Source: Girardia tigrina (Eukaryota). From it: a stretch of 64,000 bases of DNA. The stretch spans positions 7,738 through 71,737 of the forward strand of contig MQRK01236447.1 in NCBI GenBank assembly GCA_001938485.1. The letters run 5' to 3'. Under the pieces are notes generated by a model. The model saw nothing but the letters and a program-made list of their open reading frames with translations, did not search any database and was not told the DNA's origin. Made by a program: the position numbers and the translations under genes. The number at the start of each line of letters is the position of its first letter. The stretch's first letter is position 1. Of this stretch, positions 38 through 8,343 are shown in pieces.

Positions 38-547
38 GTACTATATTTATATAACAATAATATATTAATATTCATGGTTGATATTGTGATCATTCTTCAG
101 TAAATAGTTGATGATACACATAGTGATTGTATATAATATATAATAATAATATTATATATATGTTACATATAATATATGTCTAACATATATATATATTAAA
201 ATGTTCATTTTTTGAAAGGTTGATAAGGTAATGGTTGATACAATTAGGGTTACTTTTTATTGCTGTTAAGGTAGATTTGAAGGTTTTTATATACAAATGG
301 CTGTTCATGAGGTGATTTTGATGGTTGACGATATGGTTGTTAAGGTATATTTGATAGCTGATATGGTACTTTTAATGGTTGATAAAGTATATTTGATAGT
401 TGATATGGTAATTTTTGATGGTTGCTGGTATGTTTGATAAGGTATATTGGATAGTTTATAGTATGATGGTAATGGTTGATAAGGTAGTTTTTATAGTATT
501 TTATATATTATTCAGCATTTTCTGTATTTTTTACATATTCAGTTTTG

Positions 548-2357
548 CATGACGATATCACCTTGGATACGTTCATGTTTTGAATGCTTGATACGATATT
601 GGTTGATAAAATAGTATAATATCATAATATAATACATATCTATAATATAATATTTGTACACATGATGTGCATATATTCGAAAAAGCACTAGGTATCGATT
701 TTTTCAAAAATGTTGATATTGAATGTGACTATTCATATATGAGTTACTATCCATGTGTTCAAACAGATTTTTAATATTTTGCTGTCTTCACCTTCTGCCT
801 AGGGCCTAGGCTATACCTTATGAGAGTTTTCCACCCCTTTGCACTGTAAAACACTACATCCCCTTAATCGATTAGTGTACATTTCTTCAAAAATCTAAGA
901 TCATATTCCGACTATTAATCTATGGATTTCTATACATGTGTTCAAACAGATTTTCGATATCTTACTACCTTCGACATCTGGCTAGCTGGTACATTATATA
1001 GAAAACGTAAATATAGTACACTTTGCCCAATTGTGAACTTATTGATTTTGCATACTTGCACACGTGAAGTATCGATTTGCACATGTGCAGTATTGATTAG
1101 CACATGTACAGACGAGTGCAGTATTGATTTTTTGCACTTTTTGTGTAATTTTGGTGGTTTTTACAAGTTTTCGATGATTTTGAAGGTGCTTTTCATGGTA
1201 AGGGTGATGGTTTCTAAGCTGTTTTCGATTGTTTTTATATATAATATTAAAAGGTTATGTATCATGGTTACGGTAACCAAGGTACTTTAGATGGTTGATA
1301 CCTAGTCTCTGGTACTTAGCTGATTATGCAGATGTTATGTATAATGTCGATGCATGTTTTAAGTACTATAGGAGTTTTATATATGCAGTTTTTATATATA
1401 ATATAAAAGGTTATTTATCTTGGTTACGGTAACCAAGGTACTTGTGATTGTTGATGCCTAGGCTGGGGTACATTAGGCGATTTATGAGGTATTGTTTGAT
1501 TGTAAATAACATACATATATCATAGGGGTTTTATATATATATACAAAAAAAGCACTAGGCACCGATTTTTGAGCACTTTTTTAAGAATTTCAGAAATATT
1601 CGAAAAATGCAATTTATCAGCACTTTTTCGAAAATGTTGATATGGAATCTGAATTAATGTATATGGGTTACTATTCAAGTGCATCAGCATATTTTTGATA
1701 TTCTGCTTTCTTCTGTCTCTAAAATCGATGTGCATTTTGTGTAAATTTGCACATTATGGTAATTATATGGACAATTAATAAATATATGAAATTTCTAATG
1801 GCACATTCAAATAGAGAATCAAAATGTGCATCAAACACATAATATTGATTTTTGACACAGGCACTTAAAAAATTTTATGTATTGATTTTTTACACTTTGC
1901 ACATGTGCAACTTAAAAAGCACTGTGGTAGCACATTAGAAATGTGCGGCACAATGTACAATATCGATTAGCACATCTGGGCACTGTGCAGCCATCGATTA
2001 GCACTTTTTTCTTCGGTTGCTAAGTAAAGGGTAACGGTTGCTATGAATGCGGTAACCGTTACCATGATTACAACAACCTTGAATGACTGTATCCGTTGCT
2101 AATGAAAAAAATCCTTGGTTACCGTTGCCATTGGTTGATAAGTTGGAACCGAAACCATTGCTAAGGAACCGGGAACCAATCAGAAGTGTTTCCAAGGTAC
2201 CGAGGACCAATCGGAACCGTTGCTAGGGTGGTCGGAACCGTTGCTGCCTAGGCTAGGGTGATCGGAACCGTTTCTATGGTAACCGCGACCGTTGCCATGT
2301 CAAGGGGTGACCCCGCTGGGGGGTGTTTGGCCGAATGCCCATTTTCCCCCTACTTCT
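548..2357. mobile_element. Long terminal inverted repeat (~1.8 kb) of a Polinton-like element, copy 1 (terminus at ~2354-2357)
   Basis: 548-690 is a direct match to 7620-7760. 1500-2350 is an inverted, diverged match to 2710-3560. The minus-strand end reads AGAAGTAGGGGGAAAATGGGCATTC versus AGAAGGGGAAAAATGGGCATTC at 2707. 5'-AG termini are typical of Polintons. Confidence 0.75.
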
Positions 2358-2757
2358 GCTCTTCGATGAACGTTATCTCTTCTTGTGTGATTCTGACTGT
2401 TTCATCTCTTGGACAGTAATAGAGCATACTTCTTACGAACGTACGTGATTCAAGTTCTCTATTAAATTTCACGCACCAATATGTAGTTATCCAATCTTGA
2501 AGGAAATTGTAGGATATGTTAACACAACAGATTTATCACCATGTAAATATTTACGAGACCATTTATTTGCCGAATCAATACACACTTGAAAAATCTTCTT
2601 AGTGGTAATCTCTCTTTAGAGTTTGCTCTCTTTATTTGTAAGTTAAACAACTCAAAAGTGTTTTTAGTATATTGTTAATTATGTTTTGCACCTTCATACA
2701 AATCTTAGAAGGGGAAAAATGGGCATTCTCCCCACATGACCCCCCCGGGGGGAGGCC

Positions 2758-2862
2758 GTTGCCATGGCAACGGTCGCGATTACCATAGCAACGGTCACGG
2801 TTACCATAACAACGGTCGAGGTTACCATGGTAACGGTCGCGGTTACCATAGTAACGGTTCCG
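2758..2862. repeat. 21-bp tandem array (5 units) of X-box-like palindromes in the TIR
   Basis: Unit cores are GTTGCCATGGCAAC, GATTACCATAGCAAC, GTTACCATAACAAC, GTTACCATGGTAAC and GTTACCATAGTAAC at 21-bp spacing. Confidence 0.9.
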
Positions 2863-4430
2863 GTTCCCTTGGTGATGGTCCCCATGGTCTTCGTAACCAT
2901 AGCAACGGTAGCCAAGGGACGTTTTTCATTAGCAACCGATACAATGATTCAAGGCGGTTGTAACCATGGTAACGGTTCCCGTATCCACAGCAACCGTAAC
3001 CCCATCACTAAGGACCGTAGAAAGAAGTGCTAATCGATCACTGCACAGTACCCAGAGACGCTAAGGGATATTTTGAAAGTGCTAATCGGTAGTGCACATT
3101 TTGCCGCACATTTCTAATGTGCTAGCACAGGGCTTTTCAAGTTGCACATATGCAAAAGTGTATAAATCAATACATAAAATTTTTTAAAAGTACTAGTGTC
3201 AAAAATCGATATCATGTGTTTGATGCACATTTTGATTCTCTATTCGAATGTGCAATTAGAAATTTCATATATTGATTACTTTTCTCTATAATAAGCATAA
3301 TGTGCAAATTTGCACAAATTTCACTTTGATTTTAAAGGTACAAGGAAGCAGAATATCAAAAAAGTAATGATGCACTTGAATAGTAACCCACACACGTACA
3401 TTAAGATTCAACATCAACATTTTCGAAAAAGTGCTGAAAAATCAATTTTTTCGAAAATTTCTGAAATTCTCAAAAAAGTGCTCAAAAATATATATTTTCG
3501 TATATATCTGAAACCCATATGATATATGTATGTTGTTTTCCATCAAACAATACCTCATGAATCTCCTAATGTACACAAGTATAATCACAATTATCACGGT
3601 TACCGTAACCAAGATACATAATATTTTATTTTACATGTAAAATCTACATGTAAAAACTACTATTGTACTTCAAGCATGCATCAATATAATACATAACATT
3701 TTNNNNNNNNNNNNNNNNNNNNNNNNNNNNNNNNNNNNNNNNNNNNNNNNNNNNNNNNNNNNNNNNNNNNNNNNNNNNNNNNNNNNNNNNNNNNNNNNNN
3801 NNNNNNNNNNNNNNNNNNNNNNNNNNNNNNNNNNNNNNNNNNNNNNNNNNNNNNNNNNNNNNNNTATGTATATTATACAAAAACCTTAGAAACCATCATT
3901 GTTATCTTAAAAACTATGAGAAATGCTTTAAAAATCATGGAAAACATGTAAAAACCGTCAAAATTACACAAAAAGTGCAAACATCAATACTGTACTAAGC
4001 CTAGGCAGGCTGCATAGGCTGCAAATGTGCTTATCAATACTGTACATGTGCAAGTGTATGAACTTATTAATTTCAATAAATAAGTTCACAATTGTAAAAA
4101 GTGCAATGTATTCATGTTTTAATATAATATTGTGTAAAATGGGGCCGAATGCCCACAGTGGTGGAGAATGCCCATAGGGTATATAAGGAGAAACAAGCAA
4201 AATATCAAAAATCTCTCTGAACACATAGATAGAAACCCATAGGTAAATAGTAGGAATATGATCTTAGATTCTTGAAAAAATCAATACATAGTGCTTTTTC
4301 GAACATATGCACATTATGTATGTAAATATTATATTATAGATATGTATTATATTATGATATTATACTATGTTATCAACCAGTATCGTATCAACCATTCAAA
4401 ACATGGCCGTATCCAAGAAGATATCGTCAT

Positions 4431-4520
4431 GCATCCATCATGTTAATGTATTGCATTCATCATGTCAACGTATTGCATCCATGATGTCAACAAATTGTAT
4501 TCATAATGTCAACGTAATGT
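4431..4520. repeat. 22-bp tandem repeat (4 units) at the inner TIR boundary
   Basis: gcatccatcatgttaatgtatt / gcattcatcatgtcaacgtatt / gcatccatgatgtcaacaaatt / gtattcataatgtcaacgtaat. Inverted counterpart at 7572-7620. Confidence 0.8.
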
Positions 4521-4694
4521 ACAGTTGAATATTTTATATCTTATACATTTTTATATTATATATTTTATGTTATATTTTATATGTTATATATAACAAAAGT
4601 TGTTGTTTACAAGTTCATGAATAAAGACAGGTATAAGGCAAGTATGTTCAACAAACATTTATTTACATATGTTCAATATTTACAAGTATATCAT

Positions 4695-7282
4695 TCACAA
4701 ATGATAATATCCATGAGGTAATGTACTTATTTCATCTGGCAAAATATGTCGTTTATCGTCAAACCAGTCAAGGCTTTTCTTTCGCATCATTACTGTGGAG
4801 ACCTGATGTTCTCTTGATTGGATCCTTCGCATTTCAGAAATTATATTAATTTGTTCCCGCAGCACTCTCATATAATCATGGAATCCGATTTGGTTTGCTA
4901 ATGCTGCCGTTGAACTCCCGTTGCCCTCTTTTTGATCTTGCCATCCAAATCAATGGCATACATCTTAGACCGTAGTATCACAAATCTAGAGATGATTTGA
5001 CCATTGACTTCATCCTTAAACTTTCTAAGGACCTTTTTTTTGACGTTGAATAATTTGGGTGGTCCTTTGGATAGTCTAAGGTATCCATATGTTGAGACAT
5101 TTGAAAAAACTCCGCAAACAGATCTTCTGTATGAATCTGATAGACAAAGCTATCAGTATCCATATACATTAGCTGTAAATTGTGGTTGAATTTAGAGACC
5201 ATGATGTCATAGTGGAAGTCGTACATCAAGGTCTTGGATAGATCCAGGATTGACATCCCCACATATGTCGGCTTATTAAACACCAGTGATGTCTTCAGCA
5301 TATGTATACTCACCAGGTTTTCAGTGTATATGATGTTGCTGTGGAAATTTGATTTGGCAATGAGTTTCTTTGCGCGCTTCCAATCACATACCAGCTCGAG
5401 GTTGATTCTGTTCCGGATATTCTCCATCTCTTAAGTGTCACATCCCGAAAGCTCTCAAAGACATCTGTAAGAAGCAGCACATCTTTTTGGAGGTATACAT
5501 CACTATATTCCCCAAGTTTTTTGCATTTGAAAGTTTGCCAGACATTTTGCGCATGTTGATAATCAGCATCACTAATGTCGGTGTCATTAAGCTTGTTGTA
5601 AAATGCTTCTTTTACTGGTAATGCTGTTTCATCCAGCGATCGCCATGATGTTATATAGTCATAGGGGAATACTCCTTTCCTTTTGACCAAATCAAATGTA
5701 TTTGGGAAGAACTTTTTAGTTTCCTTCAGTTCATCTGCTGGAAGGTTCTTAACAAGACTGTCCAGCGATGATGACATGAATCGGAAACTATTGATGAATC
5801 GGAGCTTAATTCTTCCCACATGCTTAGTAAATGTGATGTATTTTTCCTCACTGTTTGGAATAACATCTATGTTCCCTTTGATTTTTCCCAATTCTCTTAC
5901 TATGAAATGGGAGTCATATCCACTAAGATTGTGGAANACAACAGGAATATTTGTAGATGTTTTACATCGCAAATTGCAGCTATTACATGCTGCTCCTCGA
6001 TATTTTCCAGTGAAATGACAATGGTCTTTGACTTTGTAATTTTCCTTTGTGAATGGCTTTTCACACATGTAACATTGCGTTGCCTTGTTCCATTCACATT
6101 TTTCTTGCCATGCCATTATCATGTTGAACTTGTGTTGCTGCAACATGTCTTCAATTGTGTGGGCATAAGTCTCCATACGTTTCATAAAATGTTCCGCTGC
6201 ATCTGGACTTCTGTATAGGAATGGTTCATTGTCAATACCCAATGTATACATACAGTATGATGATAGCTCATGATACTGGTATGCTGTCGTACTGCTAAGT
6301 TGCGGATCAGGATTGCATGTTTGGACTGGGTTTAGAATGGCTTCAAAGTCACAATATATGATAATTGGCACTTTCTGCATCTTTTCATATTTTTTGAATT
6401 CGATATAATCTTCTTTTGGAAATTCCGCTCTGATGCAATGATTGTTATTGCAATAGACCTTGTGCTCCTCCAACTTCATTATAGCTTCAGAACCATTAAA
6501 ATGTGTAAAACATCGTTTACAAATCTCGATACTTCCATGTTGTTTCGATATTTGGCATCTTAGAAGTCGTTCAAAGTTTTTGATCCATATAAAATGCCTC
6601 TTTTCTCCATCATCTAGCAGTAGTAAATCCCTATGGTCTTTCAATTCTTCCTTACATATAAGTAAGGGATAAAATTTTTCATTCTTCAATCCAAAAATAT
6701 TGATTGATACATTGTTGCGGCTTCCAAATTTATTGATGTCTTCCAGGCTCGGTGAGAATTTTATACAGTTGAAGTCATATGGGTACTGCAGATTGTTATA
6801 TATCCATACCAGTGATGCATGCTTCTGATCCTCAACAAATTTTGACAACATTGCATACTTGAAGCACATGTTGTCTTCATTGTGAACATTGATGCATGCC
6901 TTTTTCTTGACTATCCATTCAGGAAGCGGAATGTGGGAGCTGCCCTTCCTTGGGGAGTATTTATGAACATGTATAATCAACTGATTTACAGATGCAAGAG
7001 TCCATCCACTCTCCTTTTCCTTGCTTTCATCGGCTTCCTTCATTATCTTGGCATGTTCTTCCTTGAGCCAGTCCGTAATATCATCAGATTCCAATATTGG
7101 TCTATTTTTGGTCTTAAAGGCTCTATATGATAATTCATCTTTAACATTGGTGAATGTTGCCTACAATTTTAGGTTGACTTTGATGGCTTTGAAATCAACC
7201 ATGTTGTCTTGTAGAATCTCCATGGTTTCCTTCTTGGAATATTCCAGAAACTCATGGAGACTTGTGACTTTGCTGCCTAGGC
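4695..7282 (-). pseudogene. Polinton/adintovirus-type protein-primed family B DNA polymerase (pPolB), with frameshifts, a stop and an internal deletion
   Basis: Motifs: ESGWTL, CINVHNEDNMCFKY and HFIWIKNFERL (N-terminal region); IIYCDFEA (ExoI); CYMCEKPF..DHCHFTGKYRGAACNSCNL (endonuclease VII/HNH-like insert); FHNLSGYDSHF (ExoII); RKGVFPYDY; YMDTDSF (Pol motif C); LRSKMY; DDKRHILPDEISTLPHGYYHL* at the C-terminus. The sequence jumps from DVFESFRDVTLK to MENIRNR, so motifs A and B are missing. Confidence 0.92.
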
Positions 7283-8343
7283 NNNNNNNNNNNNNNNNNN
7301 NNNNNNNNNNNNNNNNNNNNNNNNNNNNNNNNNNNNNNNNNNNNNNNNTTTATGAATTGGTCTCTGTCTTGAGCTTTTTGATGGAATATTTGAGATATTT
7401 GTATCATTTACACGTTTTGATGGAATATTTGAAGCCTTGGCTGCCTGGCCTGCCTTGACTGTATTTGGAACAGGTATCTGCATTGAAAAATTTGTAAAAT
7501 TTACATGTTTTAAAGGAACTTTTACCTTATTTGAGCCATTTTTCTCAATTGAAACATTCTTCTCAATTGCTGATGCAATACGTTGACATGATGAATGCAA
7601 TACATTAACATGATGGATGCATGACGATATCTTCTTGGATACGGCCATGTTTTGAATGGTTGATACGATACTGGTTGATAACATAGTATAATATCATAAT
7701 ATAATACATATCTATAATATAATATTTACATACATAATGTGCATATGTTCGAAAAAGCACTATGTATTGATTTTTTCAAGAATCTAAGATCATATTCCTA
7801 CTATTTACCTATGGGTTTCTATCTATGTGTTCAGAGAGATTTTTGATATTTTGCTTGTTTCTCCTTATATACCCTATGGGCATTCTCCACCACTGTGGGC
7901 ATTCGGCCCCATTTTACACAATATTATATTAAAACATGAATACATTGCACTTTTTACAATTGTGAACTTATTAATTGAAATTAATAAGTTCATACACTTG
8001 CACATGTACAGTATTGATAAGCACATTTGCAGCCTAGGCAGCCTGCCTAGGCTTAGTACAGTATTGATGTTTGCACTTTTTGTGTAATTTTGACGGTTTT
8101 TACATGTTTTCCATGATTTTTAAAGTATTTCTCATAGTTTTTAAGATAACAATGATGGTTTCTAAGGTGTATGTATCATATACATANNNNNNNNNNNNNN
8201 NNNNNNNNNNNNNNNNNNNNNNNNNNNNNNNNNNNNNNNNNNNNNNNNNNNNNNNNNNNNNNNNNNNNNNNNNNNNNNNNNNNNNNNNNNNNNNNNNNNN
8301 NNNNNNNNNNNNNNNNNNNNNNNNNNNNNNNNNNNNNNNNNNN

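Follow-up and report, generated by a model that had tools for sequence, protein, structure and literature searches.

In the available text of four descriptions (PMC8097293, PMC6431247, PMC5718144, PMC4028283), Polintons (Mavericks) have terminal inverted repeats (TIRs) with AG-type ends, 6-bp target duplications, a protein-primed DNA polymerase (pPolB), an rve-type integrase, an ATPase, a protease, and capsid-type genes, with all genes carried on one molecule of 13-25 kb. The Girardia family described here is alike in gene content and ends, but its genes appear to be divided over two units with a common TIR, and its end reads AGTAGG instead of the (AGT)2 of described Polintons and bears arrays of X and Y boxes. 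A bipartite architecture is absent from the available text of the same four sources, and the words "bipartite" and "segmented" are absent from PMC8097293 and PMC4028283. A lineage of Polintons with a mini-TBP, represented by the metagenome loci L314, L318, L345, L353, and L362, shares with the Girardia family a TBP-fold protein of ~145 aa with an SSB-like neighbour, an identical gene order in the B module, and a TATA-like late box. It differs in that the TBP gene is followed by the ATPase gene, with pPolB on the same contig in L314, L318, L353, and L362. No X-box array was seen in these mini-TBP metagenome loci, most of whose contigs stop short of the TIR.

Sites for host factors are already known from the ends of viruses and transposons. 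Per the available text of PMC5760533, RFX1/3 bind the AAV ITR (its D-sequence) and the EF-C enhancers of HBV and polyomavirus, so that a terminal repeat or enhancer carries RFX sites acting in transcription; each of these has one RFX1/3-bound site, whereas the sites described here are predicted and form a variable phased array of up to ~20 half-sites together with CCAAT. The MHC class II X-Y enhanceosome and other RFX/NF-Y modules similarly place an X box and a CCAAT box at phase-keeping distances: in the parts of the sources available, RFX5 acts together with NF-Y under distance constraints (PMC4889920, PMC4381081), and ependymal-cell RFX1-3 peaks are enriched for Y boxes (PMC7498320). Unlike the class II enhanceosome, the array comes without an X2/CREB site and without CIITA, and the published 29-bp RFX/NF-Y peak was measured differently from the distances given here. 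Clusters of heat-shock elements in Caenorhabditis Helitrons, as the available text of PMC6927752 has it, are likewise a mobile, high-copy source of one host factor's sites, although these elements are Helitrons and not Polintons, and their occupancy was shown whereas our sites are predicted. The literature searches made here turned up no description of an RFX array at a Polinton end. The nearest analogy to the split itself is offered by the bidnaviruses, which have two segments with common terminal sequences and a Polinton-derived pPolB, and which have ssDNA, a parvovirus-type capsid, and no integrase; the Girardia family, unlike them, has an integrase.

The array and the two insertions in the window

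The window, i.e., the whole 64-kb stretch of Girardia tigrina DNA that was analysed, contains the following features of this family:

546-2354, minus strand: TIR copy A, the end of a separate insertion, pointing left, with an AGTAG terminus at 2354
2016-2299, minus strand: array of TIR copy A, with X-box half-sites, one near-full box (2270-2283), and CCAAT at 2176-2180 and 2207-2211
2355-2706, no strand: 352-bp stretch between the back-to-back termini, outside the family (self-match only among the tested loci)
2707-2757, plus strand: terminus of copy B (AGAAG, a variant of the AGTAG family end), the conserved terminal core, and a length-variable C-run/G-run
2707-4690, plus strand: TIR copy B, outer and inner parts, ~2 kb
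2758-2855, plus strand: five X-box-like 14-mers in exact 21-bp phase, the modular array of TIR copy B
2893-2994, plus strand: more full X-box-like sites (2893-2906, 2960-2973) and half-sites (2931-2936, 2989-2994)
4720-7500, minus strand: broken protein-primed PolB gene with an endonuclease-VII insert, a unit A derivative
7572-8186, minus strand: inverted inner-TIR copy, 99% identical to 3865-4479

The original prediction had described a phased array of RFX X-box palindromes just inside an element terminus, and the array does lie ~50 bp inside a Polinton TIR end. The perfect 18-bp palindrome CCGTTGCCATGGCAACGG (2756-2773), the X-box-like 14-mers GTTGCCATGGCAAC (2758-2771) and GTTACCATGGTAAC (2821-2834), and GTTTCTATGGTAAC (2270-2283, in the array of TIR copy A) were all found where they had been placed. 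Its 21-bp repeat is borne out by five units at exact phase, far above chance, and its extension of sites to ~3000 by the further boxes up to 2973 and half-sites up to 2994; the fixed, non-repetitive block of the TIR starts at ~2907. The RFX consensus is GTNRCC(N0-3)RGYAAC, and strict matches to it occur at five distinct sites in the 64-kb window, all within 2758-2973. With at most one mismatch, GTTRCCATRGYAAC has 12 strand matches (8 sites) in the window as opposed to 0.06 expected, and none of 100 shuffles reached 12 matches.

The account of a second TIR stood only in part. Of its two CCAAT boxes, that at 2207 was placed correctly and the first starts at 2176, not 2177; a diverged TIR with X-box motifs is indeed present, but it belongs to another insertion and is not the same element's other end. 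TIR copies A and B are 76% alike, and their termini (2354 and 2707), 352 bp apart, point away from each other, which makes them the ends of two different insertions.

Inner parts of the TIR are variably present among other copies of the family. The pPolB gene in the window retains an open frame at 5310-7043, lacks ~690 bp at 5428 relative to sister copies, and contains a frameshift and stops; this unit A derivative is without the SSB, mini-TBP, and Y genes, and no outer TIR was found beyond the 7572-8186 copy. Sister copies of the inner TIR are 85-92% alike, whereas 3865-4479 and 7572-8186 are nearly identical, which may reflect either an assembly effect or a local inversion and duplication of recent date. 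By eye, the inner TIR was also seen to contain two inverted copies of a portion of the terminal core motif (4141-4180 and 7866-7910), possibly sites for an element protein. At AG sites (window 2247, 4000, 8033, and 8046, and many loci), a 9-bp insertion with CCTAGG in it is found repeatedly, often inside a half-site, in which case the half-site is regenerated and the phase is shifted by almost one turn; this is perhaps the footprint of another transposon. As for transcripts, contigs of four runs (two recorded as RNA) cover 29-30 of 30 bins across window 2700-7570, with no start, strand, or level readable from them, DNA possibly present, and shares below 0.2.

Genome-wide (1.43 Gb), the 22-nt terminus pattern is matched exactly 4,161 times (control: 0), and for two full boxes set 21 bp apart there are 11,381 strand matches. 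Each of the 15 tandem X-box loci sampled (13 contigs) has an AGTAG-type terminus within 250 bp upstream, and inward-facing terminus pairs are bounded by a 6-bp target duplication that is exact in five of nine cases, has one mismatch in two, and is missing in two. A Helitron or Helentron end lacks a TIR pair and a target duplication and has a 3' hairpin plus CTRR; this identity is contradicted by the TIR pairs, the 6-bp duplications, and the terminus near 15/15 loci. The AGTAG ends and TIRs of 1-2 kb are those of Polintons/Mavericks, with the vertebrate (AGT)2 form not exactly matched. The pPolB homologues are annotated PF03175/PF02945, and the protein is 25-38% identical to the pPolB of complete Polintons. 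AG-type ends, 6-bp duplications, and pPolB are the hallmarks given for Mavericks in the available text of PMC8097293.

Just past the invariant core, nt 17-35 of the terminus vary block-wise between subfamilies, with 21 six-letter types in 67 arrays, and both units show the same types. Other Polinton families coexist in this genome, with at least five complete elements (L172-L191, ~13.5-16 kb, pPolB 25-36% identical). These begin AGTAGT, and no strict X-box was found in any of the five, so the array is no general Polinton need. Targeted insertion into complete Polintons was considered and rejected (2/126 flanks versus 1/122 control tiles). A search of IMG/VR retrieved no close pPolB relative, one distant match to TBP, and no tandem X-box pair.

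Array build, constraint, and candidate readers

To describe the array across copies, 59 loci were picked by TIR sequence outside the array; 46 reach the terminus, and 44 are unique and N-free. Each of these 44 arrays holds 2-20 half-sites, 41 have at least one strict X-box, and 31 have ATTGG. The modules are few, namely a 21-bp unit (a full box or the right half-site alone) and a unit of 31-32 bp that includes CCAAT. A set of 67 arrays was chosen irrespective of array content. In this set, where the module types are few and events are not independent, half-site spacing deviates by no more than 1.5 nt from a multiple of 10.4 in 265 of 282 cases (28% expected) and still in 84 of 101 when multiples of 21 are excluded (again 28% expected), and ATTGG, present in 42/67 arrays (75 on the array strand and 3 on the opposite one), follows a half-site by 7, 27, or 28 nt in 76 of 89 distances.

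We compared column entropy over 486 units of the 67 arrays, with the RFX consensus of the original prediction as reference. The mean is 0.62 for the eight RFX-invariant columns, 1.14 for the six degenerate ones, and 1.19 for the seven spacer columns; by permutation, p is 2e-4 among the 21 columns and 0.006 within the 14-mer, although neither columns nor units are independent of one another. GGT, the first three bases of the spacer, is conserved nearly like parts of the box. Recurrent-type changes fall on invariant columns in 9 of 79 cases as opposed to 48 of 186 for private changes when a three-array threshold is used (p 0.009), and the same test at a two-array threshold gives p 0.41. In the fixed block (42 copies, with the mis-anchored L139 and L149 left out), shared variants occur in 2 of 18 box columns versus 32 of 86 neighbouring ones (p 0.05, borderline), and p is 0.38 when box columns are compared with the whole aligned region. 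The expectation that motif columns diverge more slowly than spacers is therefore upheld for entropy at the RFX-invariant columns and depends on the threshold or comparison in the tests of shared variants. Together, these results give moderate support to selection on replicating master copies at the motif. Private changes do not spare boxes (1.83 per column versus 1.47 in neighbours), and since they are as frequent there as in neighbours, a host benefit from inserted copies is unsupported; selection would target the replicating masters rather than the inserted copies.

Array length would change by slippage, through both growth and shrinkage, and the array might accordingly be read as a neutral minisatellite that slippage grew from one chance X-box-like palindrome, with the host factor irrelevant. 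The wide range of half-sites per array fits such a reading, tandem duplication alone yields multiples of 21 bp, and the private changes and the p of 0.41 at one threshold are also in line with it. However, variation is concentrated at the degenerate consensus positions (the p of 0.006 within the 14-mer), modules of 30-32 and 51-52 nt preserve the helical phase, and there is a second recurrent motif, CCAAT, in one orientation and with three variants of its flank, all fitting the NF-Y consensus. We consider a neutral minisatellite quite improbable.

We turn to proteins that may read the array. The original prediction depended on the host having RFX genes, and these were found: profile PF02257 has six matches in the genome, which represent at least three different genes, and in one exon 52 of 61 residues are identical to the RFX1 domain of 1dp7 (human RFX1), showing a conserved DNA-binding domain. 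The best named matches of this exon are cestode and trematode RFX1/2/3 proteins, and NF-YA domains are present in the host genome as well. From the motif and these genes, we predict that host RFX is probably the reader of the array. Co-reading by MYB at an overlapping YAACNG was also considered and seems unlikely; nothing in the bases after AAC points to it, and the best translated PF13921 matches are CDC5L-like or unplaced. In the available parts of the planarian literature, Polintons are piRNA targets that are de-silenced in differentiation to epidermis and neurons, in a text that does not mention RFX (PMC8532177), NF-YB is active in spermatogonial stem cells (PMC4909293), and CCAAT occurs in tissue promoters, with the caution that a motif alone proves no regulation (PMC10558129).

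The array could instead be read by a protein of the element itself. Transposases bind subterminal repeats, and the presence of the array at every end of both units resembles such repeats. The pPolB cysteine-rich N-terminus (with Cys/His-rich repeats), the Y protein, or the integrase would then be the reader. Scanned against profile libraries, the Y protein and the pPolB N-terminus gave no match. ORF X, which was tried as an RFX-like domain, has no match to the host RFX domain and resembles SSBs of the T7 gp2.5/Enc34 type, the mini-TBP has a candidate box of its own, and the variation in the array tracks two host consensus motifs. We regard an element-encoded reader as very unlikely, slightly more so than a neutral minisatellite, and retain host RFX as the preferred one.

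Two roles had been proposed for RFX binding, namely as an origin co-factor or as an enhancer. Adenovirus origins need strict spacing. Under the first role, RFX would be a direct co-factor of the origin, as NFI and Oct-1 are at the adenovirus ITR, and would recruit the terminal-protein/polymerase complex. This reading is favoured by the start of the array at ~50 bp from either end in both units and by its retention at both ends of four of five short gene-less elements, and a signal on all ends suits a role in replication. Yet the end of the first box lies 53-134 nt from the terminus, with 40 distinct values in 66/67 arrays and no phase, and the C/G runs in between vary in length by single bases; the host-factor site at a fixed distance that marks an adenovirus-type auxiliary origin is not found here. 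At the adenovirus origin, NF-I binds nt 23-36 (in the available text of PMC6410123). One 987-bp element with a target duplication at a TA-rich site (L112) has an end without an array. Given the variable distance, this array-less end, and the other Polintons without a box, a rigid contact at the origin is unlikely, and we judge the direct co-factor reading quite improbable as well, on a par with the minisatellite. An enhancer fits the variable distance better. The nearest gene start is ~2 kb away from the array, and internal promoters of the family yielded no X-box. An enhancer or chromatin-opening role remains, as judged from the motif arrangement, and a looser origin role, in which the array would keep the end free of nucleosomes, merges with this RFX/NF-Y enhancer explanation.

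Two units with one terminal repeat

The genes of the family are likely split over two separate units with common ends:

Unit A, roughly 8-10 kb: TIR-Y-pPolB/SSB-like/mini-TBP-TIR
Unit B, about 9 kb: TIR-ATPase-integrase-minor capsid-major capsid-protease-exonuclease-TIR

For unit A, the TIR adjoins pPolB on its 5' or 3' side in many loci, the small Y region between TIR and pPolB is next to another family part in 30/30 loci, and a TIR part follows TBP in 18 of 30. The TBP-fold gene has at least 152 matches among those listed. Its product has the TBP fold (PF00352, E 4e-14), and the model of a 92%-identical homologue has pLDDT 92 and a Foldseek E of 5e-9 to TBP. The neighbouring gene X is divergent: its top four VIA matches have a middling Z of 6.3-7.9, with Z 7.0-7.9 for the T7 gp2.5/Enc34 type and Foldseek E above 0.09, and the structural comparison makes an SSB fold of this type probable for its product.

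Unit B was located with proteins of metagenome relatives. Its candidate genes, all in one direction, are ATPase, PX, integrase, minor capsid, PZ, major capsid, protease, and exonuclease; the ATPase has at least 151 matches among those listed, the integrase at least 144, and the major capsid at least 109. Integrase, ATPase, protease, and capsid are assigned by homology to L314/L342 proteins, and capsid, protease, and exonuclease are putative names given on gene order and known motifs; Pfam gave no match for the L314 capsid candidates. Among 14 loci holding the exonuclease gene, an X-box TIR follows it in nine and pPolB in none. C223974 reads TIR-B-TIR over ~9.0 kb, is bounded by a duplication matching at 5 of 6 positions, and lacks pPolB and TBP, and C224105 and C233042 agree with the unit B layout as far as the contigs reach; all three copies have breaks or gaps.

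The two gene sets were not found together. Contigs shared across units number 0 in six cross-unit pairings, versus 40, 14, 4, and 4 within units. The match lists of pPolB and integrase have no contig in common, and 149 TBP contigs compared with 149 ATPase contigs gave 0 matches. Among 400 loci of the own genome, A genes occur in 112, B genes in 69, and both in none, so that pPolB and integrase lie within one TIR pair in 0 of 181 loci, and no copy among them appears autonomous as a single molecule. In this fragmented assembly most loci span 3-4 kb, and searches scored the best 40-150 candidates each, so rare unsplit copies could be missed.

This bears on another explanation, in which units A and B are mere classes of deletion derivatives mobilised by rare unsplit copies outside the sample. 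Besides the fragmented assembly and best-candidate searches, many derivatives in the family are gene-less, and only two TIR-to-TIR copies with genes and a duplication were found, namely C233872 (with a gap and insertions) and C223974. Unsplit relatives do exist, since 34 of the 80 TBP loci from metagenomes also have ATPase, integrase, or capsid. On the other hand, the junctions recur (a TIR part after TBP, and a TIR but never pPolB after the exonuclease), TBP and ATPase contigs do not overlap, and selection on shared variants is seen in both units. The close relatives L306 and L308, with TBP 68-70% identical, also show TBP and then the same TIR, without ATPase. Deletion derivatives are thus an unlikely explanation, albeit one to be taken more seriously than the alternatives for the array, and we prefer the split into two units. 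An earlier idea, a pPolB-only element moved by other Polintons, was dropped once the TBP, SSB-like, and Y genes and unit B had been found. A Pox_A32 search retrieved, among the matches listed, other Polinton families only.

Some further features of these units were observed. Relative to the SSB-like/TBP and Y genes, pPolB is found pointing either way (L281 and L282 versus L290 and L304; also L407 and L414), as if a polymerase cassette had inverted between short internal repeats. A piece of ~100-120 bp from the pPolB-flanking region is also found upstream of the unit B ATPase. In C233872 (7831-9573; L061:432-2174), an intronless frame of 581 aa resembling asparagine synthetase (weak PF00733) sits beside an N stretch and within the duplication-bounded element; it may be a captured host gene or a scaffolding artefact. 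In C223974, a small acidic ORF lies between TIR and ATPase, and a similar-looking one, by eye, follows TBP in L306 and L308.

Proposed interdependence of the units and its meaning

Promoter motifs and coding variants bear on how the units may depend on each other. B genes have a TATAAAC no more than 110 nt from their start in 81 of 98 upstream windows, as opposed to 0 of 40 for the TBP and SSB-like (X) genes and 6 of 427 in the background. In pPolB (32 copies including that in the window), shared variants are 79 nonsynonymous and 168 synonymous versus 449 and 136 for private ones (p 6e-34). Shared variants are also mostly synonymous in the integrase (p 4e-6) and TBP (p 8e-4), and the test for the major capsid, near-duplicate loci included, gives p 0.13. 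Given the complementary gene content, the split in TATAAAC, and the selection on shared variants, each unit appears to be without what the other holds.

On balance, we lean towards the explanation that the TIR array is an RFX/NF-Y docking cassette activating both units of a split Polinton. Host RFX, aided by NF-Y, would bind the arrays and open both units in the same cells, with the array acting as an enhancer that activates an early unit A. The polymerase and SSB of unit A would replicate both units from their common ends, its mini-TBP would read the TATAAAC promoters of unit B, and the integrase and capsid of unit B would serve both units. A more far-reaching and more tentative idea, for which we put the chances somewhat below even, is that the family is a bipartite Polinton virus, with obligately complementary, separately integrating segments that the RFX/NF-Y array wakes together in sperm-forming or ciliated cells.

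Polinton activation in animals is little understood, and this family offers a concrete host-factor candidate along with a simple test, in a group of animals for which RNAi and chromatin assays are standard practice. The thousands of tandem RFX boxes genome-wide are a possible sink for RFX, the cilia regulator, or a possible source of rewiring. If the proposal is true, the RFX/NF-Y array would solve the co-activation of a split genome scattered across host chromosomes, and the family would be a model for how genome parts scattered in a host stay coupled. A two-segment Polinton would then also be a natural model for the origin of segmented DNA virus genomes.
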